From an uncultured bacterium (lineage in GTDB: Bacteria > Verrucomicrobiota > Kiritimatiellia > PWTM01), in the NCBI GenBank assembly GCA_900661335.1, contig CAACVY010000003.1, forward strand, positions 99 to 64,098: 64,000 nucleotides of DNA. Direction: 5' to 3'. The notes beneath the pieces were generated by a model. The model saw only the letters and a program-made list of their open reading frames with translations. It did not search any database and was not told the origin of the DNA. Positions 8,201 through 64,000 of this stretch are shown one piece after another (the first letter of the stretch is position 1; every line of letters starts with the position of its first letter). Position numbers and translations under genes: made by a program.

Positions 8201-8331
8201 GGCTTCTCGCTCGCGCGGTACAACGTCCGTGGGCGGACTCGACCGCTGGAACATTCGATCGAGCCCAACGCGACGGTGATTGCGCCGACGCAGGTCGAGG
8301 TTCGCTAGGGTGAATGAGCTATGGGCTGGCT

Positions 8332-9714: not shown

Positions 9715-9739
9715 ACGCAACTCCTTTCTCCTTTCGAAG

Positions 9740-11101: not shown

Positions 11102-11336
11102 GGCCTCAAATACTCCTTATTACTTGCGCCCGCGCAGCGTCATGCAGTCTGCCATTGACGCACCAAGCGGTCAAGGACTTGCGGGGAACAATGCGGCCGC
11201 CCTCCCATACGCGCGGATACTTGCCCAGCACGTCGTTGCAAACAACGAGAACCGGAGGATCGTGTCACTTGAAGTCGGGGCTTGTCCTATAGCCGCACCT
11301 AATCGGCCGGGCAGATCGAAGCTGGCAACGGCAGGG

Positions 11337-13702: not shown

Positions 13703-13709
13703 AGCGGCC

Positions 13710-14585
13710 TCAGGGTAGGAGGTTGCGGATGCTGTAATTCACTTCGCCGGTCATGTCAATGCGCACGGGCGGCGAACCTTCGTGGCGGGGATAGTTCCGG
13801 ACGCGGCGAAGAATATCGGGGAGGTAGTCGAGGCAACTATGCATCGTTCGGCGCGGCATCAACACTTCCTCTCCCGTGGCCAACGTCAGAAGAAAGGTTT
13901 CCGCGTCACGGCGGTGCACGCGTAGGATCCCCACGCTCCGTAGCGTGACATCCTTGGCCACGCGCGAGAGGAGTGCAAGGGCGTCGAGAAGATCCGGCGC
14001 AGCCAGCCGAATGCCTGGACGAAGTCCCAACGGATGAAACCCTGTGAGTTGCGGCAACGCCTGCGTGGAGGCGTCGCCGATCCATACCCAACCCTCGGCG
14101 TCCACGGCCAACGGGAGCTCATACCCGGGCAGCACGATTCGCGCCAGTGGCGTGCGTTCGACTACGCGTACCTCGAGGGTGTCGGGTAATAGTCGCCGGA
14201 CCTGCACGTCTTTCACCAGCGGTACGCTTCGCAGTCGCTGGCAGATCTCCTCGGAGCTTACGCGGAACAGGTTCTCCCCTTCGCGGAGTTCTGCGTAACG
14301 TTGCAAGAGCTCCGGCGTCAAGCGGCCATCGGAGGACAGGTCGAGGTTGCGGATCGTGAAGAACGGGTTCTCGGTGAACAACGTGGCCGTGGCCTTTCGA
14401 AAGCCGAGGAAAAGGACCATGCCCGTCGCCGCCAACGTGACTCCCACCAGCACGAGGGTGCGCCAGTGGTCAGTGGAGATCGCCGGAGCCCATCCGGCGC
14501 GGGTTCGCGCCCACACCGGTACGTGCTGCGGCGCCCGCCGTCGGCCATTCCACCATCGAGCCCACCATGACTGATACGTGCCCAT
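13710..14585 (-). CDS. ftsQ: cell division protein FtsQ (POTRA domain)
   Basis: A single N-terminal TM segment (LVLVGVTLAATGMVLFLGF) followed by FTIRNLDLSSDGRLTPELL...VKDVQVRRLLPDTLEVRVVERTP, a POTRA-type sequence. It sits in the ddl-ftsQ-ftsA order. Confidence 0.8.
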   Translation of the reverse strand: MGTYQSWWARWWNGRRRAPQHVPVWARTRAGWAPAISTDHWRTLVLVGVTLAATGMVLFLGFRKATATLFTENPFFTIRNLDLSSDGRLTPELLQRYAELREGENLFRVSSEEICQRLRSVPLVKDVQVRRLLPDTLEVRVVERTPLARIVLPGYELPLAVDAEGWVWIGDASTQALPQLTGFHPLGLRPGIRLAAPDLLDALALLSRVAKDVTLRSVGILRVHRRDAETFLLTLATGEEVLMPRRTMHSCLDYLPDILRRVRNYPRHEGSPPVRIDMTGEVNYSIRNLLP

Positions 14586-48843: not shown

Positions 48844-51800
48844 GTGCGCTCTGGGTTTGTCCATTTGCACGTCCACACGGAATTTAGCTTGCTCGACAGC
48901 CTCGTTCGAATTCCCGCGCTCGTCGAGCGAGTGGCGCAGCTGGAGATGCCCGCGGTAGCGATCACGGACTCGGGCAACCTGTACGGCGCCGTCCGCTTTT
49001 ACCGCGAGGCGCGCCGCCGAGGGTTGAAGCCGATTCTGGGTGTGGAGCTTGAAGTCGCGCCGCTGGTCTATTCGCTGCAGCTTGAAGCGGAGTCAAATCC
49101 CGACCTGGTGTTGCTGGCGGAGACGCCCGAGGGGTGGAGTTCATTGCGCGAGCTGGTGAGCGAAGCGCACTGGGTGAACCCGCCGCCGGCCCGGCCTGTG
49201 GCCACGGTGGACATGCTCGCCCGTTGGACGCGTGGGCTAATCGTGTTGACGGGAGGCAACAACGGAGAGATCGCGCGGCTTTGTCGCGCCGGGCAACTCG
49301 ATGCAGCGGACGCCGCGCTGCGACAGCTGGTCGAGCTATTCGGCCGCGAGCAAGTGTTCGTGGAACTGGCGAATCAAGGGCTGCCCGGACAAGCGGAACT
49401 TCGGCAGGCGCTTCGGGAGCTCGCGCGCCGTGTGGGTGTCGCATGCGTGGCAACCAACAACGTTCACTATCTCTCGCCCGCGGACGCGACCGCGCACCAG
49501 CATCTCCGTAGCTGGCGCCGGGGGGCCACATACCGGGAGCTGGGGTATTCGGACCAGTTTCATCTCCGGTCGGCCGAAGAGATGTACGCGGCGTTTGTAG
49601 AGGATCCCGCCGCGGTCCAGCGCACTTTGGACATCGCCGAGCGCTGCCAAGCCACCCTGTACGTAGGCGATGGCCCGTCCGTCCCGGGCGTGGAGCTGCC
49701 CGCCGACCTGCAGCCCGAGATGCCGGCCGCGTACCGTGAGGAGTTGTACCTGCGGCGGTTGGCCACGGAGGCATTGCGCCGCCGCGCGCCGCACCTGCAA
49801 GGAGGCCTCGCCCTATACGAACGGCGGCTGGCCGCGGAGTTGGAGGCCGTGGGGCGCGCGGGGGCCGTGCGGCGCGTGTTGTGGTTCCGGGAGATCGTCC
49901 ACGCGGCGCGACGCGATGGATGGTCGTTGGGCGTGGCCCGGCCCAGTTGGACTTCGAGCTTGTTGTCGTGGCTGTTCGGGCTCACTGACGTGGATCCCGT
50001 GGACGAGGATGTTCCCCCGGACTCCTTCATCAACACGGAGCGGCCCGAAGCTCCCGAGCTCGCCTTGGAAGTCTCCCCGCTGCATCGAAGTGCGTTCGTG
50101 CGGTGGTTAATCAGGCGGATCGGGACCGACCGCGCCGGCCACACGATCACGTTCGGCGTGTTTGGCTGGCGGTCGGTGTTGCGAGAGCTGGCGCGGGGCC
50201 AAGGTTGGTCGCCGTCGGACACCGACGCGTTCATTCGGCGGATTCATGTGGACGACGGAGGACCGCTGGGGGCGACGGTGGCGGCGGTCAGTCGCCAGCT
50301 TGCGGAGCTTGGTCGGGAGGAGTGGGCCCGGATCCTGACGGCCGTGGCGGGTCTGCCTCGGAATCCGTCGGCGCACCCGACTGCGCTGGTGGTGTCGGAC
50401 CGTGCCCTGCGTACGCACGTTCCGGTTGCACGCACACCGGAGGGATTTTTGATTACGCAGTGGGATGCGGAGACGGTCGCACGTATGGGACCGGTTCGGT
50501 TGGATGTGGTTTCCCATGCAGGGGCGGTGTGGCTGAGCCCCGGCCCGGACGCGGAGGTGGGGCCATGCGAATCGAATGAACTTTCGGCCACACTGGCCGC
50601 GCTCGCCATGGGCGATCTGGTCGGCATTCCCTACGTGGACGCACCTGCGATTCGAGAGCGGCTGCGTCGAGAAGGCCTTCGCCATTGGCGCGAACTCGCC
50701 CAGTGGTTTGCGTGCGCGCCCTCCGAAAACCGCGACGCGACCGCAGCGACGTCCAAGCGGACCCCACTGGCCGAACCGGGCCGCGGCCGTCGCGCGCGAT
50801 GGTGGGGACTGCTGCGGGGCACGAATGGCCAGCTGCTGTTCGTGGAGCAGGCTCAGCGGTGGGCCGAGTGGATTGGCGGCTTCACTCCGGCGCGATCGGA
50901 CTTGCTGCGCCGTGCGGTGGTATCCCGCGACGAGGAGCTGATCGCGCGACTTTGGAAGTTGTTCGTTCGTGGCGCCTCCCAGCGGAAACTTTTGTCCGAC
51001 GAAGCGCGGTGGTACTGGGAACAGATTCTCGATACTTTAGCTCGACGCGTCAGCCGTACGCGGTTCTTGGCACAAGCTCGAGCGGTATGCCGCGCGGTGC
51101 GAACTCGCGAGCGCGACCCGTGGTCATGGCTGGCCCAGGCCTTGGACGCGCACGAAAGTGGGTCTCCCATGCGCCTGTGCTTGGTCCGCGAGGCACTGGT
51201 CCGCGGGTGGGTCCTTCGTGGGCCGGACTTGAATCAAAGTCGCGCGGTGACGGTACGCGAAGCTGATGGCGTTCGCCTCGGTCTTCTCGGCGTGCAGGGA
51301 CTGAACGAGCACGCGGTCGATGCCTGGCTGCGCGAGCGTGACCGTCGGGGACCATTCCGTAGTGTCGCCGACTTCATCCAACGGGTGGACATGCAGCAGT
51401 GGACTCGGGCTATGGCCGGGGCGTTGGTCAGCAGTGGGGCGTTGGACGGCTTAGGTGCTTCTCGCGATGCCGCGGCCGTGGAGTTAGAAGCGGGTTTGTT
51501 CGGGGCAAGTTCGGGCCGAGCGGTGGAGATGCCTCGGCGCACGCGATGGAGCGAGGAGCGAGAGGTTCTGGGTTTTCCGGTGAGCCCGCATCCTCTGGCC
51601 GAATGGGCGTGGCTTCTGTCGTTAGCAGGATTCCTCGGATGGGCCTCCGCGGACGCGGGTGTGGGAATGTGCGTCCCCTTGGCCGGAGTACTGGTGGAGC
51701 GGCGTACCGCGGGCGGGCGGGAACAGATTCGGTTCGACTGGTGGTCTGGCGAGGCCTGGGTCGACATGGAGGAAGGGGGAGATTCCAACGTGGAGGTGTT

Positions 51801-52137
51801 GGACGGCGAAGCCGGATGGGTAGTGGCCACCCAGGTGAGGGAAGATCTTTGGCGAGCCCGGGGCCCGATACGTCGGATCGACGAAATCGACGCGCATCTG
51901 CGTCAGTTGCACATTTCGCCGCCGAGCTGGATGACATGGCGGCAGATCGCCAAGGCGTTGGAAGAGGTCGTTGCGCAATGGCCAGGGGAGATCCCGGTGT
52001 GCGTCAACGCCGTCGGCCAGCGCGGATCGCGGCGAAACGGTGCGCGCGTGAGGCTGGGTTGCGAATGCGTGAGAGCATTGGCCCGAGCGTTCGGACTTGC
52101 CTCGCTTCAGGTGAAGCTTGACCTGGGAAGAGAGTAA
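48844..52137 (+). CDS. DNA polymerase III alpha (DnaE)-like protein with intact-looking PHP domain but degenerate polymerase active site
   Basis: GTG start. The PHP N-terminus is FVHLHVHTEFSLLDS...AITDSGNLYGAVRFY...KPILGVELEV...VATNNVHYL. The palm/fingers are colinear with E. coli DnaE but the key blocks are altered: GPGRGSGAGS becomes GVARPSWTSS, FERFLNPERVSMPDFDVDF becomes PDSFINTERPEAPELALEV, HAGGVVI becomes HPTALVV, and GFNKSHS becomes RVSRTRF. Confidence 0.75.
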   Translation: MRSGFVHLHVHTEFSLLDSLVRIPALVERVAQLEMPAVAITDSGNLYGAVRFYREARRRGLKPILGVELEVAPLVYSLQLEAESNPDLVLLAETPEGWSSLRELVSEAHWVNPPPARPVATVDMLARWTRGLIVLTGGNNGEIARLCRAGQLDAADAALRQLVELFGREQVFVELANQGLPGQAELRQALRELARRVGVACVATNNVHYLSPADATAHQHLRSWRRGATYRELGYSDQFHLRSAEEMYAAFVEDPAAVQRTLDIAERCQATLYVGDGPSVPGVELPADLQPEMPAAYREELYLRRLATEALRRRAPHLQGGLALYERRLAAELEAVGRAGAVRRVLWFREIVHAARRDGWSLGVARPSWTSSLLSWLFGLTDVDPVDEDVPPDSFINTERPEAPELALEVSPLHRSAFVRWLIRRIGTDRAGHTITFGVFGWRSVLRELARGQGWSPSDTDAFIRRIHVDDGGPLGATVAAVSRQLAELGREEWARILTAVAGLPRNPSAHPTALVVSDRALRTHVPVARTPEGFLITQWDAETVARMGPVRLDVVSHAGAVWLSPGPDAEVGPCESNELSATLAALAMGDLVGIPYVDAPAIRERLRREGLRHWRELAQWFACAPSENRDATAATSKRTPLAEPGRGRRARWWGLLRGTNGQLLFVEQAQRWAEWIGGFTPARSDLLRRAVVSRDEELIARLWKLFVRGASQRKLLSDEARWYWEQILDTLARRVSRTRFLAQARAVCRAVRTRERDPWSWLAQALDAHESGSPMRLCLVREALVRGWVLRGPDLNQSRAVTVREADGVRLGLLGVQGLNEHAVDAWLRERDRRGPFRSVADFIQRVDMQQWTRAMAGALVSSGALDGLGASRDAAAVELEAGLFGASSGRAVEMPRRTRWSEEREVLGFPVSPHPLAEWAWLLSLAGFLGWASADAGVGMCVPLAGVLVERRTAGGREQIRFDWWSGEAWVDMEEGGDSNVEVLDGEAGWVVATQVREDLWRARGPIRRIDEIDAHLRQLHISPPSWMTWRQIAKALEEVVAQWPGEIPVCVNAVGQRGSRRNGARVRLGCECVRALARAFGLASLQVKLDLGRE

Positions 52138-52156
52138 AATAAAATTCAACGAAGTA

Positions 52157-54920
52157 ATGCGCCGTTTATTGTCCGTTGCTTTCGTGGTCGGCCTGTCGGT
52201 GTCGGGCATGATCCCGATCGCCCTCGGGCAAGACACATATAAGGAGACGTGGGCCGCGGCCGCCTCCGCGCTGGCGCGCGGAGCGTACGAGGATGCGATC
52301 CCGCCGCTGCGGAAGCTGATCGAGTGGTTCGGCGACACGGACAAGGCCAGCATGAAGGCTGAGATGGAGTCGGTGTACTACCATCTCGGGCTGTGCCACT
52401 TGTTTCTTGGCCAGTTCAGTGAAGCCCGCGAGGTGTTCAATACATACCTTAAAAAATTTCAGTACGGCGCCCACGCCTCGTTGGTGGCAATTTTCATCGG
52501 CGACACCTATCGGTACGAAGGCAAGACGGGCGACGCATTGGGTGCGTACGAAAAAGCCCTGAAGTCCTACGAGTACAACCTGGATCTGAAGACGGATCTC
52601 TGGGTGTGCATGGCTAAGTGCCACTTGGCGACGGAGAAGTGGTCGGCGGCCGAACCGCTGTTGCTGCAGGTCTACCGGAATGCGCCGGATGGCTATCGTC
52701 GGAACTGGGCAGCGGCGATGTTGGCCACTGCGTACTTAAAGGACCACCAGCCGGACAAGGTGTATCCGATGGTCCCGTTGCTGCTGCAGCGGGATTCCTT
52801 TGCTGCGCGTAGTGTGGCGCTGAACATGGCGGCCTTGGAGGAGGGCGACCGGCTGTTCATGGAGGACAAATATCGCGACGCGTTGTGGGTGTACCGGGTT
52901 GGTGTATCCCCACGACCTCTTGCGCCTCAATGCCCAGACCCAACTCGAGCGGTGGCGGTTGCAAGTTCGTCGGTTCCAGCGGTACCTGGGGTTCGCACGC
53001 GAACTGTTGCGGGCGCAGGAGACGGTTTCCGAGATCGAGAGCGAGCTCCAGGCGATCGAGAAAATTCCGAACTACGATGTGGAGCTTCAGTACCGCATTG
53101 CGCGCGGGTACATGGAAACGCGTCGGCTTCGCGAGGCCTCCGAACTTTTCTACGCATTGTACAAGGATGCGCCACCGGAAAAGAAAGAAGAGACGCTGTA
53201 CCTCTCGTTTTTGTGCGCGCTTCGAATTCGGCCGGCCGACCGGTGTCTGGCGCGCGGGCATGAGTACATGGACCGATACCCCGGGGGGCCGCACTACGAT
53301 GCGGTGTCGTTGGGTGTGGGGCAGATCTACGCGGCGGAGCAGAACTGGCCCAAGGTGTTGCAAGTGCTCACGAAAGCCCTGGAGGTGCATCCCAAGCACG
53401 AGGACATTGCGGAGGTGCTGTTCTTGCTCGGCTATGCATCCTTCATGGAGGAAAAATTCGCCGACGCCCAAGGGTATTTGGGGCGCATTGTGAAGGAGTA
53501 TCCGGGCAGCGAGCGCGAGGTGGACGCGCTGTACTGGCTGGGCATGGCGTACATGTTCGACCGAAAGTACGAGGAGGCGCAGCCGAACTTCGATCGAATT
53601 TTGCGCGACTTCGGAACCGCCATGTATGCGGAGGACGCACTGTTTCGCTCCGCCACGTGCGACTATGCGCTGAGCCGATTTGAGGAGGCGGAGCGCAAGC
53701 TGCTGCGCTTCTTGGAGCGGTATCCCGAGAGCCGACTCAGGGGCGAGGCGCTCGTGACGCTGGGCGACATTTCTGGCGCGCTGGGTGAGTTGGAGGAAGC
53801 CGTGCGCCGGTACAAGCAGGGGATGGAGGTCCCGGACCTGAACATCGAACTCTACAACCATGCCGCGTTCCGTGCCGGCGAGATGCTGCGGGAACTTCAA
53901 CGTTACGACGATGCCATCCGGCACTTTGAGGACTACATCGCTCGCGCTCGGCCGGAGTCGAACATTCCGCTCGCGATTTATTGGATCGGCGAATGCTACT
54001 GGGACAAAGGCGAGCCCGAGGTGACGCTCGCGCGCTTTCTCGAGGCGGTGGAAAAGTACGGCGGCGATCGCACCGAACTGGGCGTGGATTTGATTCTGGA
54101 GAAGTGGGTGGACCGCACGCGCGGCGCGGGATCCCATGGTCGGGCGGCTTGGAGCCGGTTGCGCGACCTGCTGCGCCGCGCATTGGAGTCCCGGCAGTAC
54201 ACGTTGGCGCTTCGGCTAGAACGCGTGTTGATGTATTCGCCGGAGACCTCGGACACTGAAAAAGAGGCGATGCGGAAGTTCATCTTGCGCCCGGAAAGCC
54301 TCAAGTGGGCCAGCGCAGGCGTTCTCGAGTGGATCGTGCAAGAGGCGGCGGCGAGTCAACCCCAGCTGGCGCGAGAGGCGGCGGAAACACTCGTCCGCGA
54401 CTTCACCGAAACGGACTACGCGTTGAGCGCGCGGCAACTCATTGCGGAGCAAGCAATCGCGGAAAAGAACTGGGACCTGGCCATCGTCCAGTACAACATT
54501 ATCCGCGAAGTGTTTGCGACGTCCGACGCCGCCGCGGATGCGCTGTTGAAGCTCGGCAAGCTGTATCAGGAGAAAGGGGAGTATGATCTGGCGGACCAGG
54601 CGTACCGCGATTTCCTGGCGGCCAAGGAGTGGAAGGCCCGATGGCCCGAGGCCCTATACGAGCGTGGGCGGCTTTGGATGGCCCGGGGGCGGTACGAAGA
54701 AGCCGCGGCGTACTTCGAACGCATCTACGTGCTTTATGGCGGACACAAGGAATGGGTCGGGCGGGCGTACCTGGCGCGCGCGGAATGTCTTGCCAAGTTG
54801 GGGCGGTTCCGCGGTGCCATTGAAACGTTGGAGGAGTTTGTTGGCCGACCAGAGTACGCGGATCTGCCCGAGGTGGCCCAAGCCCGTGAGATGCAAGAGC
54901 GATTGAAGGCCAAGCTGTGA
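52157..54920 (+). pseudogene. large secreted TPR-repeat protein interrupted by a +1 frameshift near 52895-52899 (or a sequencing error)
   Basis: Frame A (52157..about 52897) encodes the signal MRRLLSVAFVVGLSVSGMIPIALG plus TPR-like helices, ending in ...DKYRDALWVYR. Frame B is open from 52824 and continues LVYPHDLLRLNAQ... with TPR repeats to 54920. After the junction, frame A becomes a Pro/Arg/Ala-rich sequence that does not look like protein. The junction lies in the run CGGG TTG. Confidence 0.65.
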
Positions 54921-55990
54921 TCCGAGCAACTTCCATCCTCGGCGGTTGGATCTGTGGGGCCTTGGTGGCCTATGGTCAAGGCGCCAGTGGGCCGCAGACG
55001 GCCACCGTCGCGCGGGCCGCCGCCGAACCCGGGGTGTTGGTGCGTCTGGTCAAGGAAAACGAAGCCCAACGCGAAGTGCTGTTGGTCCGGCGGCAGGGCG
55101 ATGTAATCTTCTTTCGGCTGACGAACTCGCCGCCAGGGGTGTACTCGCAGTTCAAAGCCGCAGACTGGGATGAGGCAGAGTTTAAAATCCAGATTCCGGA
55201 ACAAGCGGCCTACCTGGAGGCATCGCGTCGCCAGTGGGCGTCCGCCGCGCGTCGGCTGCACGTGGCCATTGCGCCGGCGTTGCCGTTTTTGGACTTGCCT
55301 CAGAACAACGTGTTCGAGCCCGCGGTGCGCACGGCGTGGTACTATGTGCGAGCGGCGCAGCAAGCGGCGCGCCGTGGCGAGGGCGGGCAAGCGGACGCAC
55401 GTACGTACTACACCGCCGCCTACGAGGTGTTTCGTGAGGCCGGGCGTGCCGCGTCGTGGCATCCGTACGGGCAGTGTGCCGCCATCCGCGCTACGCTGTG
55501 CCTCGTGGAGTTGGGGCGGCTCGACGAGGCCGAGGCCGGGTTGGCGAAACTTCCCGAGCCTGAGATCGGCGACACGGCCTGGGGCGTGTACTGGTTGGCC
55601 CGTGCGCAGCTCTACTACGCGCGCGAACAACCCCGCTACGCGCTGGAAGCGGCCATTCTCTCCTACCTGCACGAGAACAAGGACGTGGAAACTTTCCCCG
55701 ACGCCCTCATGTTGGCCGCGCAGTGCTACGAAGACGTCAACGAGGTCCATCGCGCGCGCGACGTCTACTACGAAGTCGCGCGGCTGTTCCCGGGCACGGA
55801 TTGGGGGGATGAAGCGCGGGCTAGGTTAGTAAACATCATGGAACGCCGCATGACCGAGCGCCCCGAGGACCCCAACATCGCCGGAATTTTCTTTGGCACC
55901 GAAGAGGACATGAACGAAAAGGTCCGGAAGTTCTTGAAGGAGACCGAACCGAAACTGAATAGTTCCACGACAGGAGACAAGCAACCATGA
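54917..55990 (+). CDS. secreted TPR-like helical repeat protein
   Basis: The GTG at 54917 overlaps the upstream stop (GTGA). The signal is SILGGWICGALVAYGQG. Helical repeats are present (YYTAAYEVFREAG..., WLARAQLYYAREQPRYALEAA..., AAQCYEDVNEVHRARDVYYEVARLFPGT). Confidence 0.7.
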   Translation: MIRATSILGGWICGALVAYGQGASGPQTATVARAAAEPGVLVRLVKENEAQREVLLVRRQGDVIFFRLTNSPPGVYSQFKAADWDEAEFKIQIPEQAAYLEASRRQWASAARRLHVAIAPALPFLDLPQNNVFEPAVRTAWYYVRAAQQAARRGEGGQADARTYYTAAYEVFREAGRAASWHPYGQCAAIRATLCLVELGRLDEAEAGLAKLPEPEIGDTAWGVYWLARAQLYYAREQPRYALEAAILSYLHENKDVETFPDALMLAAQCYEDVNEVHRARDVYYEVARLFPGTDWGDEARARLVNIMERRMTERPEDPNIAGIFFGTEEDMNEKVRKFLKETEPKLNSSTTGDKQP

Positions 55991-56868
55991 CCCTACGAAC
56001 CTCACGCAGCATCGGAGTTTGGATGTTGGCGATCGCTCTCGGCTGGGGCGCGATGGCTTGGGCCCAGCAGGCCTCACCGGCGGTCGCCCAGCCACCCCCC
56101 ACCAAAGATGTGGAAGTGAAGATCACTTTGTGGGACCTCTGGGTGACGGGCGGGTGGGCGATGTATCCCATCGCACTCCTCTCTATCCTGGGGGCGGCGC
56201 TGACTGTGCATGGGTTCCTGTTCACGCGCCCGGAGAAAATGGTCCAATCGCACCTGGTGCCGATATTGCAGTCGCACATCAACAACCTGGATTTTCGTGC
56301 GGCCAGCGCGCTGTGTGCACAGAACCCCGGGGTCTTGACCAACATCGTCAATGCCGGCCTGCTTCGGTTGGCGGACGGCATTACGGACGTCGCCGTGCTA
56401 GAGAAGGCCATGGAAGAGGCCGCGGTGGAGGAAAACACCAATGGCCTGCGGCCTATCAGTTACCTCTCGATCTTCGCGTCCACCGCGCCAATGTTCGGAC
56501 TGCTGGGTACGGTGAGCGGTATGATCAAGGCGTTCCAAAAAATCGGGTTGGGGGCGATGGGCAACCCTGAAAAGCTTGCCGGAAACATTGGCGAGGCCAT
56601 GATCACCACGGCGTTTGGGTTGATCGTGGGCATTCCGCTGATGTTCTTCTATTTCTACCTCAAGTCTAGGTTTCAAGGGAACATGGCGCGCATCGGGCGC
56701 TTGGCGGGCAACCTCACCCACCACATGTCCTCGATCTTTGACCGACTCCGTACCGGCGAGCTGCCGTTGGATCGCGTGACGTTACCGGAACTGATGATGC
56801 CGTTGCCCGCGGCGAGCCCCGCGCCGGCTACATCGCCAGCCCCAACGACGTCGACCCCCGGAGCTTGA
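55987..56868 (+). CDS. exbB: MotA/TolQ/ExbB proton-channel family protein
   Basis: The ATG overlaps the upstream stop (ATGA). APMFGLLGTVSGMIKAF...NIGEAMITTAFGLIVGIPLMFFY is the canonical ExbB/TolQ TM2-TM3 block. Confidence 0.88.
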   Translation: MTLRTSRSIGVWMLAIALGWGAMAWAQQASPAVAQPPPTKDVEVKITLWDLWVTGGWAMYPIALLSILGAALTVHGFLFTRPEKMVQSHLVPILQSHINNLDFRAASALCAQNPGVLTNIVNAGLLRLADGITDVAVLEKAMEEAAVEENTNGLRPISYLSIFASTAPMFGLLGTVSGMIKAFQKIGLGAMGNPEKLAGNIGEAMITTAFGLIVGIPLMFFYFYLKSRFQGNMARIGRLAGNLTHHMSSIFDRLRTGELPLDRVTLPELMMPLPAASPAPATSPAPTTSTPGA

Positions 56869-56870
56869 CC

Positions 56871-57296
56871 ATGAGGCTGATCCGCGAAGACGTCGAAGAA
56901 GCTAAGTTCCAGATGGCGCCCATGATCGACATGGTGTTTCTGCTGTTGGTCTTTTTCATGTGCGCCTCGCAGATCAGCCAGAACAAGGCATTGCAGCTGG
57001 AGCTTCCCGTGGCGACCAAAGGCGTCGTTCCCAAGGAACGACCCACTCGTTGGATCGTCAACATCTTCGCGGATGGACAATTGTTCAGCGGCGATCGGCC
57101 GTGTTCAGTGGACGAGCTCAAGGCCGAAGTTTCTCGACGGCTTCGAGAAGAGCCGAATACGAAGATCTACCTGCGCGCGGACGCCAAGGCAGAGTACCGT
57201 CACATCAAAAAGGTGCTCGAGGCCATGGCCTCGATCGGCGTGGATGATTTCATTTTTGCCGTGTTCAACCCCAGCGAGAGTGCACTTTCCCCATGA
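56871..57296 (+). CDS. exbD: ExbD/TolR biopolymer transport protein (copy 1)
   Basis: FQMAPMIDMVFLLLVFFM contains the conserved TM Asp, followed by the periplasmic domain KIYLRADAKAEYRHIKKVLEAMASIG. Confidence 0.85.
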   Translation: MRLIREDVEEAKFQMAPMIDMVFLLLVFFMCASQISQNKALQLELPVATKGVVPKERPTRWIVNIFADGQLFSGDRPCSVDELKAEVSRRLREEPNTKIYLRADAKAEYRHIKKVLEAMASIGVDDFIFAVFNPSESALSP

Positions 57297-57730
57297 AGTT
57301 CCCTACGTTCGAGATCGAAGACCCGGACATCAACGTCTCCTCGCTGATTGACATGGTGTTCCTCCTGTTGTCCTATTTCATTGTGTCGGCCAGCTTGGTC
57401 CGCTCCGAGGCGGATCTCGGGATTCGCCTGCCGGGCATGCTGGCCCAAGCGCAGACGGTGGACATGGCCGACGAACAGATCATCGAGATCCGTGATACCG
57501 GTCGAGTGGTGCTGAACGGGTTGGAGTACGACTCGCCCGACTCGACGGAGCTGCCTCAACTGGTCCAGGTGTTGACCCGGTACCGATTAGCCTCCGAGGC
57601 GGCGCGCGCCGAGCCAATGATCACATTGCAACCCGACGACAAGGCCCGCCACCAACGGGTGGTGGACGTAATGAACGCCTGCGCGCGGGCAGGGATCAAG
57701 AACGTGACCTTCGCCGCCGGAGGTGGCTAA
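57293..57730 (+). CDS. exbD: ExbD/TolR biopolymer transport protein (copy 2)
   Basis: ATGA overlap with copy 1. INVSSLIDMVFLLLSYFIV contains the TM Asp, followed by ITLQPDDKARHQRVVDVMNACARAG. Confidence 0.85.
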   Translation: MKFPTFEIEDPDINVSSLIDMVFLLLSYFIVSASLVRSEADLGIRLPGMLAQAQTVDMADEQIIEIRDTGRVVLNGLEYDSPDSTELPQLVQVLTRYRLASEAARAEPMITLQPDDKARHQRVVDVMNACARAGIKNVTFAAGGG

Positions 57731-57747
57731 GCTAGGAGGGTCGCGCA

Positions 57748-59106
57748 GTGAAATCGGCTGTGCCATTGGATGTGATCCTCTCGGGCTTCGGATACCTGAA
57801 GCTCTCCGAGGAGCGGCGCCGAACGCTGTGGACCGTGGGGTTGATCAGCCTTTTGCTCCACGTGGCGGCGTTGCTGGTGTTCGGCTCGTGGGTAGTCATC
57901 CGTTCGTTGTTGGAAGAGCGCACGGTCTTCACCGCTCCGCCGCCCCTCAAAACCTATGAACCGCGCAAGCTGGAACATCAGGTGAAGGTGACCAAGCGGC
58001 AGCGCAGTTCTAGCCGACCGGCGGTCATGCCCCGAATGGTCGCGGCGCGGCCGTCGAGCCTGGCGTTGCCGGAAATCAAAGTGGATCCCAAAGTGGTCCG
58101 GACCAGTTTCCAGCCGAAATTTAAGGCGATCACCGGCATCGGGCTCGGCGCGGGCCTGGGGCAGGGCTACGGGCTGGGAGGCTTCGGCGAGGGCGTCTCG
58201 GCCTTCGACTTCTTCGGCATCCGTGGCCGCGGTGAAAAGATCATGATTTGTGTGGACGTGTCCATCAGTATGGTGGAGGAAGAGCGCGGTGGGTTCGAAG
58301 GGTTCGATCGAGTCCGTGCGCGACTCGGCCAGGTGATCGATGCGCTGACGGAGAAGACGTTGTTCAACGTTGTGGTCTTCGCCGATGCCGCGCAGACGTT
58401 CCGGGACGAGATGGTGCCGGCGACGGACGCGAACAAGCGGGAGGCGAAGAAGTTTCTAGCCCAGTTCAACACTCCCAAGAACTACGGTTTGACTTCGGGC
58501 AACGTCCGGTCCGTGGACCTCGGGCTGAAGGCGAAAGGCGGCACCACCCGGCTGGACTTGGCCCTCACGGCGGCGTTCCTCCAAGGCGCCGATACGATCT
58601 TGATCATTTCCGACGGACTTCCTCGCGTGGCCAAAGATATCACGGCGGATCAACTGGCCGCGTGGAATGCGCGGTTGGAAGAGTGGCGCAAAGCGAACGA
58701 GGCCGCGCTCCGTGCTTATGACGAAGCCGTAGCCAAGATGGAATGGCGCGAAGAGCGCGTGTGGATTCCACCGAAGCCGGCTCAACCCGCCAAGCTGCGC
58801 GAGAACGGCGGCTCGGGCGGTTCGGGACCTACGGAGGGCCATTGGGCAACTCGACGGGTACCCACGCGCCCATTGCCACCGCGGCCGAAGCCGCCCGAAA
58901 TGCCGGAGAGCATGAAGTGGTGGACATTGGAAGATTTCTTTGAACATTTCCGGCTGTTGCACGAGCAATGCTATGTCAAGAAAGGCAAGAAGCCGCCCGT
59001 CGTGCACGCCATCGGCTACGGTATTGACAAGGAAGGCGCGGATTTCTTGCGCGAGTTCACCAAGAAGTACAACGGCTCGTTCCGCAGCATCAGCCGAATT
59101 CAATGA
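57748..59106 (+). CDS. membrane-anchored vWA (MIDAS) domain protein with TonB/TolA-type SxxxH transmembrane helix
   Basis: The GTG lies 7 nt after AGGAGG. The TM helix is LWTVGLISLLLHVAALLVFGSWVVI, with S34 and H38 in SxxxH spacing. The vWA domain has MIDAS residues CVDVSISM (DxSxS), GGTTRLD and IISDG. Its last strands (VVHAIGYGIDKEGADFLREF...) are separated from the core by a coiled/Pro-rich insertion of about 110 aa. Confidence 0.8.
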   Translation: MKSAVPLDVILSGFGYLKLSEERRRTLWTVGLISLLLHVAALLVFGSWVVIRSLLEERTVFTAPPPLKTYEPRKLEHQVKVTKRQRSSSRPAVMPRMVAARPSSLALPEIKVDPKVVRTSFQPKFKAITGIGLGAGLGQGYGLGGFGEGVSAFDFFGIRGRGEKIMICVDVSISMVEEERGGFEGFDRVRARLGQVIDALTEKTLFNVVVFADAAQTFRDEMVPATDANKREAKKFLAQFNTPKNYGLTSGNVRSVDLGLKAKGGTTRLDLALTAAFLQGADTILIISDGLPRVAKDITADQLAAWNARLEEWRKANEAALRAYDEAVAKMEWREERVWIPPKPAQPAKLRENGGSGGSGPTEGHWATRRVPTRPLPPRPKPPEMPESMKWWTLEDFFEHFRLLHEQCYVKKGKKPPVVHAIGYGIDKEGADFLREFTKKYNGSFRSISRIQ

Positions 59107-60323
59107 CGCGCCGCCGGCTCGGCGGTCGTGATGAACTCGAGGTAGTCGTGGAACACCTCCACGAGGCCGGCACCGAATTCCTCCCACAGCGCGCCGGAGG
59201 GCGGACAAGACCGATTCGCAATCCAGTTGGCGTTCAACTCCAACACTACGGCATCCAGCCCATAGCGCGTCCAAATCCCTTCACCAAAGGTGCCGGGATT
59301 GGAGAAAATCGAGTGGCCTTCAGAAAACCATGTGTATTGGCGTAGCGCGGCCTCCAAACGTTCCATGCGACTGCGAAACTCTTTCAGCGCGGGTTCGTCG
59401 CCGGCCGGCAGGTGGAGTTTACCGTGGCCATCGTTGTGCAAATCAATGAGTAATGCAGGACGGCGATTTGCGGCCAGTTCGCGTTCGAGCCATCGCTCGA
59501 ACGCTGCGTTCTCGGGTGCTACTTCGGGGTCGGCGGGAACGTCCCACTTTCGATTGAGGTCTGCCCCACGGGCGTTGAACCGAGTCCAGCCGGCGACGAC
59601 TCCGTCCTTGTTCGCCATCGGCAACACGCAAACTTTGCACCGAGTCAACAACCGCTGAGAGGCGACGTCCATGGACACCAATCGTCGCAGCAGCCCTTGA
59701 ACCACCCAGTTGCCGCCGGACTCCCACGGATGTGCCCGCGCGCGCAGCACGATGGAACATGTCGTCGTCGGCGCGCCCACGGTCACCATTTCTAGCGGCC
59801 GTCCCTGTACAGTTTGGCCGACGACTTCAACGGTGACCCGTGGGCTGCGGCGGAGTTCTTCGAGCAGTCGTTCTAGGTCGGAAAGCCGGTATGGCTCCAC
59901 GCGCGCGATGTGTAGGCAGGGGCCGGGCATGGTCACCGCAAGGCGCACGCAGTTGGAGTGGAGGATTTCGGTCGCCACGGGACTCCATTCGCGCCCATTC
60001 GGCGACACGTAGAGAGTGCTCATTTCGTTCGCTGCGGAACTTGATCGTCCGTTCCACACGTTCAGCAAGTTCGTGAACTCCAGTGTCCAGGTGGTGCCCG
60101 AGGGAGCATGCAGCACCGTATAGATATGCCCAGCTGCGCGGTTGGGAGAGTTCCGTTCCTGGTCGTAGACAAGGTGGATCCGAATCTGTCGCTCCCCGAT
60201 GAGCTCCCACCACAGCGGCGAGCCGTTTTCCATTTTGGTTTCTAGGTAGGGTAGCTCTGGCTGGGCCATCGCGGCAACGGACAGGGCAGCCAGGGTTAGG
60301 AACTCCTGCGTGGTGCGTGTCAT
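59100..60323 (-). CDS. M14 family zinc carboxypeptidase with N-terminal beta-sandwich domain
   Basis: The signal is FLTLAALSVAAMA. The zinc and substrate motifs are RAHPWESGG (HxxE), GADLNRKW and LIDLHNDGH. The ATG at 60323 overlaps the upstream stop (ATGA). Confidence 0.8.
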   Translation of the reverse strand: MTRTTQEFLTLAALSVAAMAQPELPYLETKMENGSPLWWELIGERQIRIHLVYDQERNSPNRAAGHIYTVLHAPSGTTWTLEFTNLLNVWNGRSSSAANEMSTLYVSPNGREWSPVATEILHSNCVRLAVTMPGPCLHIARVEPYRLSDLERLLEELRRSPRVTVEVVGQTVQGRPLEMVTVGAPTTTCSIVLRARAHPWESGGNWVVQGLLRRLVSMDVASQRLLTRCKVCVLPMANKDGVVAGWTRFNARGADLNRKWDVPADPEVAPENAAFERWLERELAANRRPALLIDLHNDGHGKLHLPAGDEPALKEFRSRMERLEAALRQYTWFSEGHSIFSNPGTFGEGIWTRYGLDAVVLELNANWIANRSCPPSGALWEEFGAGLVEVFHDYLEFITTAEPAARH

Positions 60324-61477
60324 TGGGGTACTGCTCCAACGGATCCGACGCGCGAGCGGTAACCTTGTTCCAGATCTGCGGTGGTGGCGAGATCGTAGTA
60401 CATGCCCACGGGGCCATGGGGGCGCAAGGCCGCCTGAACGTTGGCCTCCTCGGATGCCCAAACGCTCAGCAGTTCTTTCGGTACGAAATCGCGCAGGGAC
60501 GCCGCCTCGCCGAACGTCCGCTGGGCGCGCGTGAATTTTCCCGCGGCGCTCAAGGCCAGAGCCAGACGCACAGTGGCTTCAGCTTCAATGGACCGCGCAG
60601 CGTTCCCGGCTTGGCGTGCGCGCTGCCGGGCTTCTTCGTAGGAGGCGATCGCATCTTCGAGTCGGGATTTGCCCTGAAACGCTCGCCCCCGCAATAGAGC
60701 GATGTCCGCAGCCTCCGTGTCGGCCAGCGTAGGATCGCCGATGTCCTGCACGGCCTCCAGCGCGCGCTCGGGTTGACCTGCGGCCAGCCACGCGCGGGCT
60801 TCTTCCCGACGGGCCTGTCGCCAGAGCTCAGTTTGGCCCACGCTCGGAGCCACCGCCAGCGCGGCGACGTTCGACCAGGCTACGGCCGCGTCCACATGCC
60901 GACGTTGGCGGGTGCGTGCACGTGCCAGGATTTGCGCCGTGGGCAACTGCACGGCCGCGTTGGTTTGGGATGAGCGGTTCCAGGCTTCCAACGCCCGGCT
61001 GGCAAAGTCTGCAGCTCGCTCGTCGTCGTTCAGTTCGGCAAACACCCACGCCGCTTCGGACAGGAGCTCACCCACCAGCTCTGGTGACTCGACCCGCAAC
61101 GCGTGGGCTTCGTCCAATGCGCGTTGCAACCAACGGAGGGCTTCGACGCGGTCGCCGGCCCGGTAGGCCAGGCGAGCGCGGACGCGATAGATCCGCGGCC
61201 TCGTTTCGGGTCGGAGCGGTTCGCGACAGGATTCGAGCCGTTGCAGAGTAGCGGCGGAGAACGTTGCATCGCCCAGTTCCGCGGCCATTTCGGCGATCTG
61301 AATCCAACACGTGTCGGGGGCAGGCTCGCCCCGCTGCACTTCCCAATGTTCCGCCGCTGAACGCCATGTGGCCAACACTTCCTCGCGCGAGCGGCCGACC
61401 GCCCAGCGCGCGTTGCCAAGTTCGAACTCTACCGGCGCCTGGGATCTCACCAAATTACGGGACTGTAGCTCCGACAA
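60320..61477 (-). CDS. TPR-like helical repeat protein
   Basis: Repeated A-x-x-x-A-L helical pairs are present (RARLAYRAGDRVEALRWLQRALDEA, AADFASRALEAW, EARAWLAAGQPERALEAV, LLRGRAFQGKSRLEDAIASYEEARQRA). It is translationally coupled to the M14 peptidase. Its 5' end overlaps the last 31 nt of pnp, so the true start may be internal. Confidence 0.6.
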   Translation of the reverse strand: MSELQSRNLVRSQAPVEFELGNARWAVGRSREEVLATWRSAAEHWEVQRGEPAPDTCWIQIAEMAAELGDATFSAATLQRLESCREPLRPETRPRIYRVRARLAYRAGDRVEALRWLQRALDEAHALRVESPELVGELLSEAAWVFAELNDDERAADFASRALEAWNRSSQTNAAVQLPTAQILARARTRQRRHVDAAVAWSNVAALAVAPSVGQTELWRQARREEARAWLAAGQPERALEAVQDIGDPTLADTEAADIALLRGRAFQGKSRLEDAIASYEEARQRARQAGNAARSIEAEATVRLALALSAAGKFTRAQRTFGEAASLRDFVPKELLSVWASEEANVQAALRPHGPVGMYYDLATTADLEQGYRSRVGSVGAVPQ

Positions 61478-63342
61478 GGCGTTCTCGCACTCAACATCCC
61501 GATCTCGCGGCGGGCGGCTTCCATGCCCTCTTTCGAAACGCTGTACACGCGAACCGTGCCGTCGTCCTCCACGTCAATCTGGACTTTGTACGTTTCCGTG
61601 ATACGACGGATGTTCTTGCCGCCCGGTCCGATCAAGGCGCCAATTTTGTCCACTGGAATTCTGAAGACTTCCACCCGCGGCGCATAGGGCGAGAGCTCCG
61701 GGCGGGGCGCGGAGATCACCGAGTCCATCACGTCGAGAATTTTCAGCCGCGCCACACGCGCCTTCTCCAAGGCACGTTCCGTGATCTCCCAATCGAGCCC
61801 CCGGAGTTTCAAATCCACTTGAAAGCCCGTGATACCTTGCCGCGTGCCCGCCACTTTGAAGTCCATATCGCCGCAATGGTCTTCCGTGCCCAGGATATCG
61901 GTCACCAACACGGGCTCGTGACCGGGCCCGGTGAACAATCCAATCGAGATTCCCGCGACGGGCTTGGCCAACGGCACTCCGGCATCCATCAGCGCTAAAC
62001 TGCCCGCGCACACACTGGCCATCGAGGAAGAGCCATTCGACTCCATGATCTCGACGACCACCCGGACGGTGTAGGGATAGTCTACGGGCATCAGTGGCCG
62101 CAGACTTCGCTCGGCCAGCGCACCGTGTCCGATCTCGCGACGGCCCACGGGGCCCAGACGGCCCACCTCGCCCACGGAGTACGGCGGGAAGTTGTAGTGA
62201 AGCAAGAAGCGCTTCTCCTCCGGCCCCCCGGCAATGGCATCCAAGTCCTGAGCGTCTTCGGTCGCACCGAGGGTCACCGTGGCCAGCGCTTGGGTTTCCC
62301 CGCGCATGAACAGAGCCGACCCGTGGGTCCGCGGCAACACGCCCACCTGGCAGTACATCGGTCGAATCTCGTCCAACCCCCGACCGCCGACTCGCACCCC
62401 CCGCTCCAACACGCGGCGGCGGACGACCTCGATCTCCAACCGGTCCGCCACGTTCCGAATGTCGCTGGAACTCAACCCCGGCTCGACCTCCAACAGCCGC
62501 TGCTGCAGCTCTTCCCGAATCTGCTCGACGCGTTCTTCCCGAGCCTTTTTCTCGGCAATGTCCATGGCGGCGTCCAACGCCGCGCCAACCCACTCCCGCG
62601 CCCGCGCCAACCGCTCCGGCGGCACCAGTGGGTGTTCCTCGATCACCTTGTCCGGCAGCCCCATCATCCGCCGTAACTCGATCTGCGCATCGCAAATCTT
62701 GACCACTTCCTGATGCGCCAGCTTCATCGCGGCGAGGATGTCGGCCTCGGAAATCTCCTTCGCAGAGCCCTCCATCATGATGAACTTCTCGCGTGTCCCC
62801 GCGTACACCAGGTCCAGGTCGCTCTGCGGCAACATCGACTGACTCGGGTTGATCACCCACTGTCCGTTCACCCGGCCGACCCGCACCGCGCCGATGGGAC
62901 CAAGGAAGGGGATGTCCGACAACATCAACGCAGTGGACGCCGCGATGATGCTCAACACGTCGGACTCGTTCTCTCCGTCCGCGCATAGCAGGGTGTTGTT
63001 CACCTGCACATCATTGCGGTAGTTCTCGGGGAACAGCGGCCGAATTGGACGATCGGTCATCCGCGCCACTAGAACCTCTCGTTCCGTAGGACGCGACTCG
63101 CGTTTGAAATAGCCGCCAGGCATCTTGCCCGCCGCGTAGAACTTTTCGCGGTACTCGACCTGGAGCGGAAAGTAGTCGATATCCTCCCGCGGCCGGTCGG
63201 TGCGCGTAACGGCGGAGAATACCACCGTACTGCCCTGTCGAGCCAAGGCAGCGCCCGCCGCTTGACGGGCCAGTAAACCAGTTTCGAGCGTAAGGGTTCC
63301 CGTACCAACGGGAATTTGGACGGACTTCGACGAATTCATCAT
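61447..63342 (-). CDS. pnp: polyribonucleotide nucleotidyltransferase (PNPase) lacking the C-terminal S1 domain
   Basis: Both RNase PH cores are present (FPLQVEYREKFYAAGKMPGGYFKRE; HGALAERSL; GSSSMASVCAGSLALMDAGVP), as is the KH domain (IPVDKIGALIGPGGKNIRRI). The ORF stops 14 codons after the KH-flanking helix, at 631 aa. Confidence 0.88.
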   Translation of the reverse strand: MMNSSKSVQIPVGTGTLTLETGLLARQAAGAALARQGSTVVFSAVTRTDRPREDIDYFPLQVEYREKFYAAGKMPGGYFKRESRPTEREVLVARMTDRPIRPLFPENYRNDVQVNNTLLCADGENESDVLSIIAASTALMLSDIPFLGPIGAVRVGRVNGQWVINPSQSMLPQSDLDLVYAGTREKFIMMEGSAKEISEADILAAMKLAHQEVVKICDAQIELRRMMGLPDKVIEEHPLVPPERLARAREWVGAALDAAMDIAEKKAREERVEQIREELQQRLLEVEPGLSSSDIRNVADRLEIEVVRRRVLERGVRVGGRGLDEIRPMYCQVGVLPRTHGSALFMRGETQALATVTLGATEDAQDLDAIAGGPEEKRFLLHYNFPPYSVGEVGRLGPVGRREIGHGALAERSLRPLMPVDYPYTVRVVVEIMESNGSSSMASVCAGSLALMDAGVPLAKPVAGISIGLFTGPGHEPVLVTDILGTEDHCGDMDFKVAGTRQGITGFQVDLKLRGLDWEITERALEKARVARLKILDVMDSVISAPRPELSPYAPRVEVFRIPVDKIGALIGPGGKNIRRITETYKVQIDVEDDGTVRVYSVSKEGMEAARREIGMLSARTPCRSYSPVIW

Positions 63343-63369
63343 GCTGTGTTCGACGGTACGAGCCCGGCA

Positions 63370-63389
63370 CTCGCGCTCGATTCCGCGAG
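63370..63389 (-). promoter_or_regulatory. hairpin in the rpsO-pnp intergenic leader (candidate RNase III / attenuation site)
   Basis: CTCGCG-N8-CGCGAG forms a perfect 6-bp inverted repeat, 28 nt upstream of the pnp ATG and 30 nt after the rpsO stop. The functional suggestion is by analogy with the enterobacterial pnp leader only. Confidence 0.25.
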
Positions 63390-63418
63390 AACCGTCCGAA
63401 CGTTGCGGTCATCCATGC

Positions 63419-63682
63419 TCAATGGCGCAGGCCGAGGTGCTCAATCACCTTCAAATACCGGGGGTGATCGGTTCGGCGAAGGTACTCGAGCAAGCGGCGA
63501 CGCTTGCTCACCATGAGGATCAATCCTCGGCGGGAAGCGTGATCCTTCCGGTTCCGCTTCAAATGCTCCGTCAACGCGTGGATCCGCGCCGTCAGCAGTG
63601 CGATCTGCACTTCTGACGATCCCGTGTCGCGTTCGTGACGTTGCAATTCTTTCGGTATCTTCCCGCTCACTGCACTTTGCAT
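63419..63682 (-). CDS. rpsO: 30S ribosomal protein S15
   Basis: [50 protein letters not shown] is the canonical S15 sequence. Confidence 0.92.
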
Positions 63683-63918
63683 GAATGTGCCCGTTTCCGT
63701 CTTGGTTCCTCTCGTTGTTTGTTATTTGCCTGTTGTACTGTACCAAACAGCGCGCCGCCTGTAAAGTCCGAGCTCGAACGCGTCCGTGGCCGCCCATCGG
63801 ATCCGACGGCACAAAGTCGAGCCGGGGCAAGTCCCACGCGGGTCGTTCGGCTGGGCCCTCGGTTTGCATGTCCCTCCCCGCAGTTGTTCAACCACTAGCT
63901 TTCCAGTATCCTCGCCGC

Positions 63919-64000
63919 ATGAAACCAGTTCGGTATAGCTGGCTGGCCCCGCTCTTCGCAGTCCTGGCTTCGCTGGCTGACCTCCATGCGGCGTCGCCGA
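63919..64000 (+). CDS. 5' end of a secreted protein gene (truncated by the window edge)
   Basis: The ATG at 63919 gives MKPVRYSWLAPLFAVLASLADLHAASP, a signal-peptide-like sequence. The frame is open to the end of the window. Confidence 0.4.
   Translation, partial: MKPVRYSWLAPLFAVLASLADLHAASP

Follow-up and report, generated by a model that had tools for sequence, protein, structure and literature searches.

A vWA-type candidate force transducer encoded with an ExbB/ExbD-type motor in a deep-subsurface Kiritimatiellota genome

To our knowledge, TonB and TolA were long the only proteins known to deliver force across the periplasm for ExbB/ExbD-type motors. A six-gene locus from an uncultured bacterium (GTDB lineage Verrucomicrobiota; Kiritimatiellia; PWTM01) raises the question of what such a motor acts on when a different protein stands in their place. 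The locus occupies positions 52157-59106 on the forward strand of a 64,000-nucleotide stretch of DNA, hereafter the window (assembly GCA_900661335.1, contig CAACVY010000003.1, positions 99 to 64,098). It encodes, in this order, two tetratricopeptide repeat (TPR) proteins, TPR-A and TPR-B, an ExbB/TolQ-like protein, two ExbD paralogues, and a 452-aa protein with a vWA (von Willebrand factor A) domain and a metal ion-dependent adhesion site (MIDAS). A preliminary description of the sequence had proposed a proton-motive-force-driven envelope machine with the vWA domain as its output and the TPR proteins as scaffolds, and had known of no earlier description of the arrangement. The cluster is real and strongly conserved, and the mechanistic part of that proposal is reasonable, gaining support in the sequence analysis from a TonB-like helix motif, synteny, and motor residues. 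The claim of novelty fails. Because vWA force transducers are already in print, the window is no first sighting (Williams-Jones et al., 2025, Mol Biol Evol 42:msaf138; PMC12204202). On balance, the locus probably encodes a vWA force transducer of the TonB/TolA-like family together with its own dedicated ExbB/ExbD motor.

The protein in the position of TonB or TolA (57748-59106) matches the Pfam VWA models only below threshold (E ~0.003), and its architecture is clearer in an AlphaFold2 (AF2) model built on 28 homologues. A short cytoplasmic N-terminus is followed by a helix (residues 21-57, pLDDT ~90), a low-confidence stretch (residues 59-148), and a confidently modeled periplasmic vWA domain (residues 151-447; 58198-59088), with pLDDT >90 over most of its length. 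The top 30 Foldseek matches of this domain in the PDB are all vWA domains, including those of ITIH1/4, the PilB minor pilin, Cav alpha2delta, RrgA, GBS104, and LapA. An insert at residues 297-392 forms a helical hairpin with a Pro-rich loop. The MIDAS is intact, comprising D170-x-S172-x-S174 (58255-58269), T267, and D289, and these residues are kept in 80-81 of 81 relatives. The membrane-bound vWA/MIDAS protein of the preliminary description is thus borne out, as is its report that the operon lacks a TonB C-terminal domain, TolA, TolB, and Pal: Pfam and NCBIfam searches of all six proteins gave no match to TonB_C, TolA, TolB, or Pal/OmpA models (TonB_C at E<=0.01). That the 452-aa protein might conceal a TonB_C or TolA domain is ruled out by Pfam, NCBIfam, and the structure model, which contains a vWA domain only.

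The features that point to motor coupling lie upstream of the vWA domain. A serine and a histidine separated by three residues in a transmembrane helix are the motor-binding signature of TonB and TolA. The transmembrane helix of the 452-aa protein (residues 27-52; 57826-57903), with the sequence LISLLLHVAALL, carries this signature as S34-L-L-L-H38 (S34 at 57847-57849, H38 at 57859-57861), with S34 kept in 72/79 and H38 in 75/79 relatives. The linker that follows (residues 53-150; 57904-58197) is the best conserved part of the protein, with a mean majority fraction of 0.77-0.83 over residues 67-150 compared with 0.74 in the vWA core. It contains the invariant boxes TVF, YEPRKLEHxVKVxKRQRSSSRP, and FQPKFK, and a Gly-rich GxGxG run. 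Residues 59-148 have pLDDT <50 and are predicted to be disordered; DSSP assigns no strand there in the monomer AF2 model. Within the linker, RTVFTAPPP (in the segment EERTVFxAPPP, with F61 invariant) is a candidate motor box whose position matches the published motor-box placement, approximately residues 55-60 in the protein of Tichowtungia aerotolerans (PMC12204202). The TonB-like helix and linker, which the preliminary description had missed, are the actual evidence for the predicted motor coupling.

The published family was built on a seed from T. aerotolerans, a member of the Kiritimatiellota, and its transducers are described as tethered to the inner membrane and as combining an SHLS-type helix with a disordered region that holds a motor box, a ~100-residue domain II, and a C-terminal vWA domain (Williams-Jones et al., 2025). 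In AlphaFold 3 (AF3) models, the transducer's conserved His sits at the TonB/TolA site of the motor (PMC12204202). The genome scan described below returned metagenome-assembled genomes (MAGs) and no cultured strain, and Tichowtungia was compared through the sequence printed in the supplement of that paper, an optical character recognition copy in which single residues may have been lost. BLASTP aligns residues 33-448 of the window protein with Tichowtungia transducer 1 at 26% identity (E=1e-32), and hhalign of the window family alignment against the Tichowtungia transducer gives a probability of 99.8%. Because this homology runs from the helix to the C-terminus, the locus is assigned by sequence to the vWA force-transducer family already described in silico.

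The two systems belong to the same phylum and share the gene order of a TPR-encoding gene, a gene resembling tolQ, two different tolR-like genes, and a vWA gene, and both transducers combine an S-x3-H transmembrane helix, a disordered linker, and a C-terminal vWA domain. They differ in several respects. Tichowtungia transducers 1 and 2 have lost the MIDAS, with DADKR or DANKL for DxSxS and CSG for SDG, whereas the window family keeps it. Tichowtungia has two transducer genes in tandem and the window locus a single one. One TPR gene is mentioned in the paper, whereas two are conserved in the window family, with two further downstream genes in approximately half of the loci. The intact MIDAS, the alternative heads described below, the linker as the most conserved part, and the downstream gene pair were not found in the paper (PMC12204202). 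Literature searches found no work on vWA transducers later than the 2025 paper and nothing relevant for ExbD combined with PVC phylum names. The same paper describes a second, Idiomarina-type family, in which a TolQ-like pentamer is served by paired vWA proteins with a TolR-like trans-pore helix. It resembles the window system in coupling a vWA domain to a 5:2-type motor. However, the Idiomarina type is without exbD/tolR genes and its vWA helix carries an Asp inside the pentamer, whereas the window has two ExbD genes and a vWA helix with S-x3-H and no Asp.

The motor genes themselves are readily identified, and the preliminary description had named all three correctly. Pfam assigns MotA_ExbB (8e-28) to the ExbB/TolQ-like proton-channel subunit (293 aa; 55987-56868), which has a signal peptide-like start and an N-terminal periplasmic extension, and ExbD to both ExbD1 (3e-27; 56865-57296; 143 aa from TTG or 141 aa from the ATG at 56871) and the divergent paralogue ExbD2 (5e-19; 145 aa; 57293-57730). 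On NCBIfam models, the three proteins are intermediate between the TolQ/TolR equivalogs and those of ExbB/ExbD and reach none of the trusted cutoffs; the motor has a slight preference in score for TolQ/TolR models, and ExbB scores best on TolQ. When the motor proteins are aligned to solved TolQ and ExbD structures, the functional residues fall where they should. ExbB was aligned with Escherichia coli TolQ/ExbB and with the long Serratia ExbB (6YE4), and its Thr175, Glu203, and Thr208 are kept in 68-69 of 69 relatives. The alignment of ExbD1 with the ExbD proteins of E. coli and Serratia extends to the transmembrane Asp, which is kept as Asp22 of ExbD1 in 69/69 relatives and as Asp20 of ExbD2 in 72/72. 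A phmmer search of ExbD2 against the PDB returned nothing at E<=0.01; its identity follows from the Pfam match and from 28% identity to ExbD1. With its catalytic residues invariant, the motor looks functional. The constant presence of both ExbD paralogues suggests that they form a heterodimer.

The six genes are tightly packed, and the junctions given in the preliminary description match exactly. The TPR-A stop overlaps the TPR-B start in a GTGA at 54917, and ATGA overlaps mark the starts of ExbB at 55987 and ExbD2 at 57293. The TTG start of ExbD1 at 56865 overlaps the ExbB stop (TTGA), and the alternative ATG lies at 56871. Between ExbD2 and the GTG of the vWA gene at 57748 are 17 nt that include GGAGGG. 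The preliminary description had asked whether the order is conserved across PVC genomes, and it is. When one genome was scanned for each GTDB species, 80 loci came to light, every one of them in a MAG of Lentisphaerae, Kiritimatiellia, or Verrucomicrobiota. Among the 52 loci with >6 kb of upstream sequence, the full order TPR-A, TPR-B, ExbB, ExbD1, ExbD2, vWA is present in 49, with one more in which ExbD1 is split by a frameshift. This order is far beyond chance. Among the genomes retrieved, the cluster is near-universal in the Kiritimatiellota and Lentisphaerae, and TPR-B is conserved in all complete cassettes.

Several variations on the cassette were seen in the scan. Two extra genes lie 3' of the vWA gene in 27 of the 59 loci with sufficient downstream sequence, encoding a ~170-aa signal-peptide protein without a Pfam match and a 570-634-aa PEGA-domain protein (e.g., L001 10396-12713, L002 10424-12645, and L071 10423-12864). 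The pair is absent from the window and its closest relatives (L004-L009), and its products are candidate partners or ligands of the system. In L001/L010, on a 2.16-Mb MAG contig, ExbD1 lies in two frames (~8142-8533) and the gene caller gives 81 aa; this split is probably an assembly indel. Two Lentisphaerae MAGs (L048 and L072) have ~1.35 kb of extra sequence between exbD2 and the vWA gene (~8650-10001).

The same cassette also carries other heads. A search with the N-terminal 160 residues of the transducer against 1.84 billion representative proteins found 291 relatives of this module, 111 of them full-length. The C-terminal heads of the full-length proteins are vWA-like in 69, PA14-like in 26, and alpha/alpha-toroids of the squalene-hopene-cyclase or prenyltransferase type in eight. 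S-x3-H is present in 95/111, and His38 is nearly invariant. A PA14-type member (P0136) stands in a six-gene cassette in L087 (2108-9146), and a toroid-type member (P0142) in L088 (2200-9434) and L089. These cassettes consist of a TPR protein of 935-943 aa, a 359-368-aa protein, ExbB, ExbD, ExbD, and the transducer. L071 and L011 each have a vWA cassette in tandem with a toroid cassette, the second directly 3' of the first (L071 12928-20041; L011 ~10592-14257) and encoding a TPR protein (951 aa), a second TPR protein (269 aa), ExbB, ExbD, ExbD, and a 547-aa toroid transducer with the S-x3-H helix GSIILHILILVIL. The heads are thus exchangeable on a chassis that stays constant. The N-terminal helix and linker are common to vWA, PA14-type, and toroid-type transducers, and the linker, the most conserved region of the protein, is marked by this as a putative motor- or scaffold-binding module.

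Some relatives of the N-terminal module (P0126, P0256, P0167, P0227, and others) have a long N-terminal extension before it. Pfam finds SAM domains in six of the 111 relatives and protein kinase domains in two. The N-terminally extended transducers could be cytoplasmic fusions.

Beyond the domain content, motifs, conservation, synteny, and homology shown above, a scheme can be inferred for the stoichiometry, docking, transmission of force, and role of the TPR proteins. Its most likely form follows Williams-Jones et al. (2025), who propose that the motor takes hold of the transducer at the conserved His of the helix and at the strand behind it, and that proton flow pulls on the linker and on whatever the head binds; the interface role given below to the linker and the acidic ligand residue at the MIDAS go beyond their proposal. 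ExbB would be the proton channel, a pentamer by analogy with solved ExbB/TolQ complexes, and ExbD1 and ExbD2, each with a proton-binding transmembrane Asp, would form its inner dimer, presumably as a heterodimer. The N-terminal helix of the vWA protein would dock on the outside of ExbB through His38 of S-x3-H, and the post-helix strand RTVF would be offered as the motor box to the periplasmic domains of ExbD. Proton flow would then pull on the ~100-residue linker, and the pull would reach whatever the vWA head holds through its MIDAS, possibly a protein ligand gripped by one of its acidic residues. Both secreted TPR proteins would be fixed parts of the machine, probably binding the extended conserved linker or the target. 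The linker would accordingly offer an interface both to the ExbD periplasmic domains and to the peptide-binding TPR proteins.

Several observations weigh against this scheme. The published family was described in silico, its function was left unassigned by its authors, and no deletion phenotypes were given (PMC12204202). The docking of the helix on ExbB relies on AF3 models from that paper, made for a relative that is 26% identical. Of the four-residue SHLS motif, S and H alone are kept in the window protein, which has F45 and V49 in place of the L and the second S. The motor box is recognised from where it lies and how well it is conserved alone, in a segment of low AF2 confidence. In three related genomes (L030, L049, and L063), the vWA gene lies away from the motor genes, next to unrelated genes. 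Finally, TPR-A is frameshifted in this very genome.

That frameshift is behind the alternative with the most to recommend it, namely that the locus is a decaying remnant no longer functional in this organism. The preliminary description had placed a TPR protein of ~920 aa at 52157-54920, which needs correction: these 2764 nt are no multiple of 3, and the two parts of TPR-A are in different frames. The N-terminal part (52157-52897; Pfam TPR_19, TPR_12, and TPR_2) carries the signal peptide and first TPRs, and its frame (ORF 52118-53263) continues past the frameshift to a stop at 53263. The C-terminal part (52899-54920; 673 codons) contains repeated YbgF/CpoB-like and BamD-like TPR units. A DNA alignment with L004, L005, and L010 locates one extra G at 52889-52900 (TACCGGGTTGG), near 52,895, where the window reads TACCGGGTTG and the three relatives read TACC-GGCTG. 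Both parts are in one frame in all 54 relatives in which both could be scored, and gene callers give the relatives TPR-A proteins of 926-943 aa. The NCBI assembly carries the extra G as well, as do Logan assemblies made from two separate runs; this agreement of three assemblies from at least two runs means that it is probably real in this population, and a sequencing error is not supported as its cause. No obvious slippery heptamer was seen by eye at the site. Since the frameshift splits the large TPR-A gene, the six-gene system may be impaired in this single-cell genome. However, none of the other five genes is disrupted and each retains its key residues, and the halves could be made as separate proteins, as a TTG or GTG start is available at 52899/52902 and a 672-aa product is annotated. 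Moreover, every assembly derives from amplified single cells, and the strains are nearly identical, which leaves some room for a shared amplification or sequencing artefact behind the extra G. We regard decay as a serious but somewhat unlikely explanation.

A second alternative is that the system is a surrogate for Tol-Pal in Kiritimatiellota and Lentisphaerae, serving envelope maintenance and outer-membrane constriction; the vWA head would then stand in for TolA domain III, and the TPR proteins would take the part of CpoB/YbgF. TPR-A and TPR-B, described earlier as secreted, do have signal peptide-like starts, which like that of ExbB end in A-x-A/G before Q as read by eye; in TPR-A the start is MRRLLSVAFVVGLSVSGMIPIALG, followed by QD. 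TPR-A matches TIGR02795 tol_pal_ybgF with 152 bits in six stretches and also matches the CpoB model, and TPR-B (357 aa; 54917-55990) matches tol_pal_ybgF weakly. The TolQ-leaning ExbB and the near-universal presence of the cluster in these lineages agree with such a role. In addition, Kiritimatiella and a Lentisphaerae MAG have tolB-pal and no recognisable tolA (supplement, PMC12204202).

The YbgF match, however, reflects generic three-TPR units, and BamD, LapB, and PilW models match as well. The C-terminal part of TPR-A scores 1e-31 on Pfam TPR_6 and 1.4e-12 on YfiO, with 102 bits for BamD on NCBIfam, and the AF2 model of TPR-B (pLDDT 89.4), a five-strand beta domain (aa 40-90) followed by a TPR-like solenoid (aa 95-343), resembles the OGT TPR, BamD, and LapB in Foldseek. 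Both TPR proteins (~920 and 357 aa) are far larger than the CpoB of Tol-Pal. Thus, although the locus shares with Tol-Pal its TolQ/TolR-leaning motor scores and periplasmic TPR proteins with CpoB/YbgF-like units, it is without TolA domain II/III, TolB, Pal, and YbgC. No tolB or pal adjoins any locus examined; the cluster gave no match to tolA, tolB, or pal models, and none of these genes is annotated in the flanks of L001, L002, L084, L087, and L088. The contact of TolA with TolB is made by beta-strand addition and involves no MIDAS, and the PA14-like and toroid heads and the tandem vWA and toroid cassettes look like ligand diversification rather than a single housekeeping function. A Tol-Pal surrogate is improbable.

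Surface adhesion or gliding is less probable still. Here, the partner of the vWA head would be an adhesin complex in the outer membrane or at the surface, by analogy with Myxococcus, where the Agl-Glt machinery works with the vWA lipoprotein CglB. The AglQRS gliding motor is of the TolQR type, and the Foldseek matches of the vWA domain include the adhesin and pilus-tip domains of PilB, RrgA, GBS104, and LapA. No Glt-like genes were found in or near the cassettes examined, and we know of no report of gliding in Kiritimatiellota or Lentisphaerae. Held at the inner membrane through a ~100-residue linker, the vWA domain cannot itself be surface exposed. A link to adhesion or gliding was nevertheless suggested by the authors of the family (Williams-Jones et al., 2025).

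Equally doubtful is that the genes are merely co-transcribed, with ExbB/ExbD serving a conventional TonB or TolA whose gene lies elsewhere and with the vWA protein, anchored in the membrane, acting passively in the periplasm as a BatA-type binding or scaffold protein. A BatA-like structure (PDB 4jdu) stands at rank 35 of the Foldseek list and is weak by sequence, the three genomes with a detached vWA gene fit this picture, and the genome is ~39% complete (PMC6424206), so tonB could lie elsewhere. However, a passive anchor would not need the conserved S-x3-H helix and candidate post-helix strand, features that are hallmarks of motor coupling. The vWA gene directly follows exbD2 in 50/52 loci, and the N-terminal module stays with the cassette even when the head is swapped. 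There is no MoxR or DUF58 gene, and no TolA or TonB was found in Tichowtungia (PMC12204202).

A Bat aerotolerance operon, which shares a membrane-anchored vWA protein and TPR protein(s) in one operon, is ruled out because the cluster and its immediate flanks contain no MoxR AAA+ ATPase or DUF58 gene, and the cluster has no second vWA gene and instead has an ExbB/ExbD motor and a TonB-type His. Zorya-type anti-phage defence was likewise rejected, as PADLOC models matched none of ExbB, ExbD1, ExbD2, the vWA protein, and TPR-B, and gave a generic TPR match for TPR-A.

A vWA force transducer with its own motor accounts for the locus better than a passive vWA protein, and comparison with the Ton system shows how far the likeness goes. 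Both have an ExbB/ExbD-type motor with the conserved Thr/Glu/Thr and transmembrane Asp, and both have a single-pass partner with an S-x3-H helix and a long periplasmic linker. Unlike the Ton system, the locus has no TonB C-terminal domain (PF03544) and no TonB-box logic, its partner bears a MIDAS vWA head, it has two different ExbD genes, and no TonB-dependent receptor gene is nearby. Candidate biological roles are an envelope function like that of Tol, adhesion or gliding, and the capture and import of ligands. As with TonB systems, one genome can hold more than one cassette. Since the same cassette occurs with PA14-like and toroid heads and in tandem within one genome, we favour ligand-specific capture or pulling, whether periplasmic or at the outer membrane, rather than one housekeeping task. 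MIDAS-vWA, PA14-like, and alpha/alpha-toroid heads are all ligand- or glycan-binding folds. More tentatively, and with the odds somewhat against it, the cassette may be a modular 'puller' platform of PVC bacteria, in which a constant motor, TPR proteins, and N-terminal module serve an exchangeable head, and which, speculatively, might couple the proton motive force without TonB to the capture, import, or handling of specific macromolecules.

The setting of the locus can be described further. The region shares 100% identity with contig CAACVZ010000001.1 in assembly GCA_900661315.1, the single-cell genome AH-151-C14. This is an uncultured Kiritimatiellaeota from the BLM1 borehole in the Death Valley flow system, at 752 m depth and 57 C (PMC6424206). 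Upstream, the stop of a DnaE-like gene (1097 aa; 48844-52137) lies only 19 nt before the TPR-A ATG (window 52137-52157), and the cluster may be co-transcribed with this gene or have a promoter inside it. In a Pfam survey, the other 31 large ORFs of the window are housekeeping and carbohydrate genes. The 25 listed of their 43 Pfam families include no TonB_C, TolB, OmpA, or TonB-dependent receptor, so absence of these from the window is shown for the listed part.

Downstream of the locus, the window and the NCBI contig agree in one orientation as far as 61490, and 62446-64000 match the same contig in the opposite orientation. The join between 61490 and 61491 shortens an 860-aa TPR gene to 385 aa (60320-61477, minus strand) and PNPase to 631 aa (61447-63342, minus strand), and one Logan contig stops exactly at 61490. 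Inverted repeats at the junction are limited to short, chance-level pairs, with no long one. Chimeric inversions and assembly branch points are frequent in amplified single-cell genomes, and the junction looks like one or the other.

To an idea already published, the window adds a clean example from a deep-subsurface Kiritimatiellota single-cell genome. It also adds that most of the family keeps an intact MIDAS, unlike the published seed, which provides a testable handle; that the conserved linker is a likely motor or scaffold interface; and that the same cassette occurs with other heads. If true, the modular platform would represent TonB-independent coupling of the proton motive force in polysaccharide-degrading bacteria that often lack a recognisable TonB or TolA. 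A third class of transducer with a metal-dependent adhesion head would widen the range of ExbB/ExbD-type motors, and it may explain how Kiritimatiellota and Lentisphaerae manage without a recognisable TonB or TolA.

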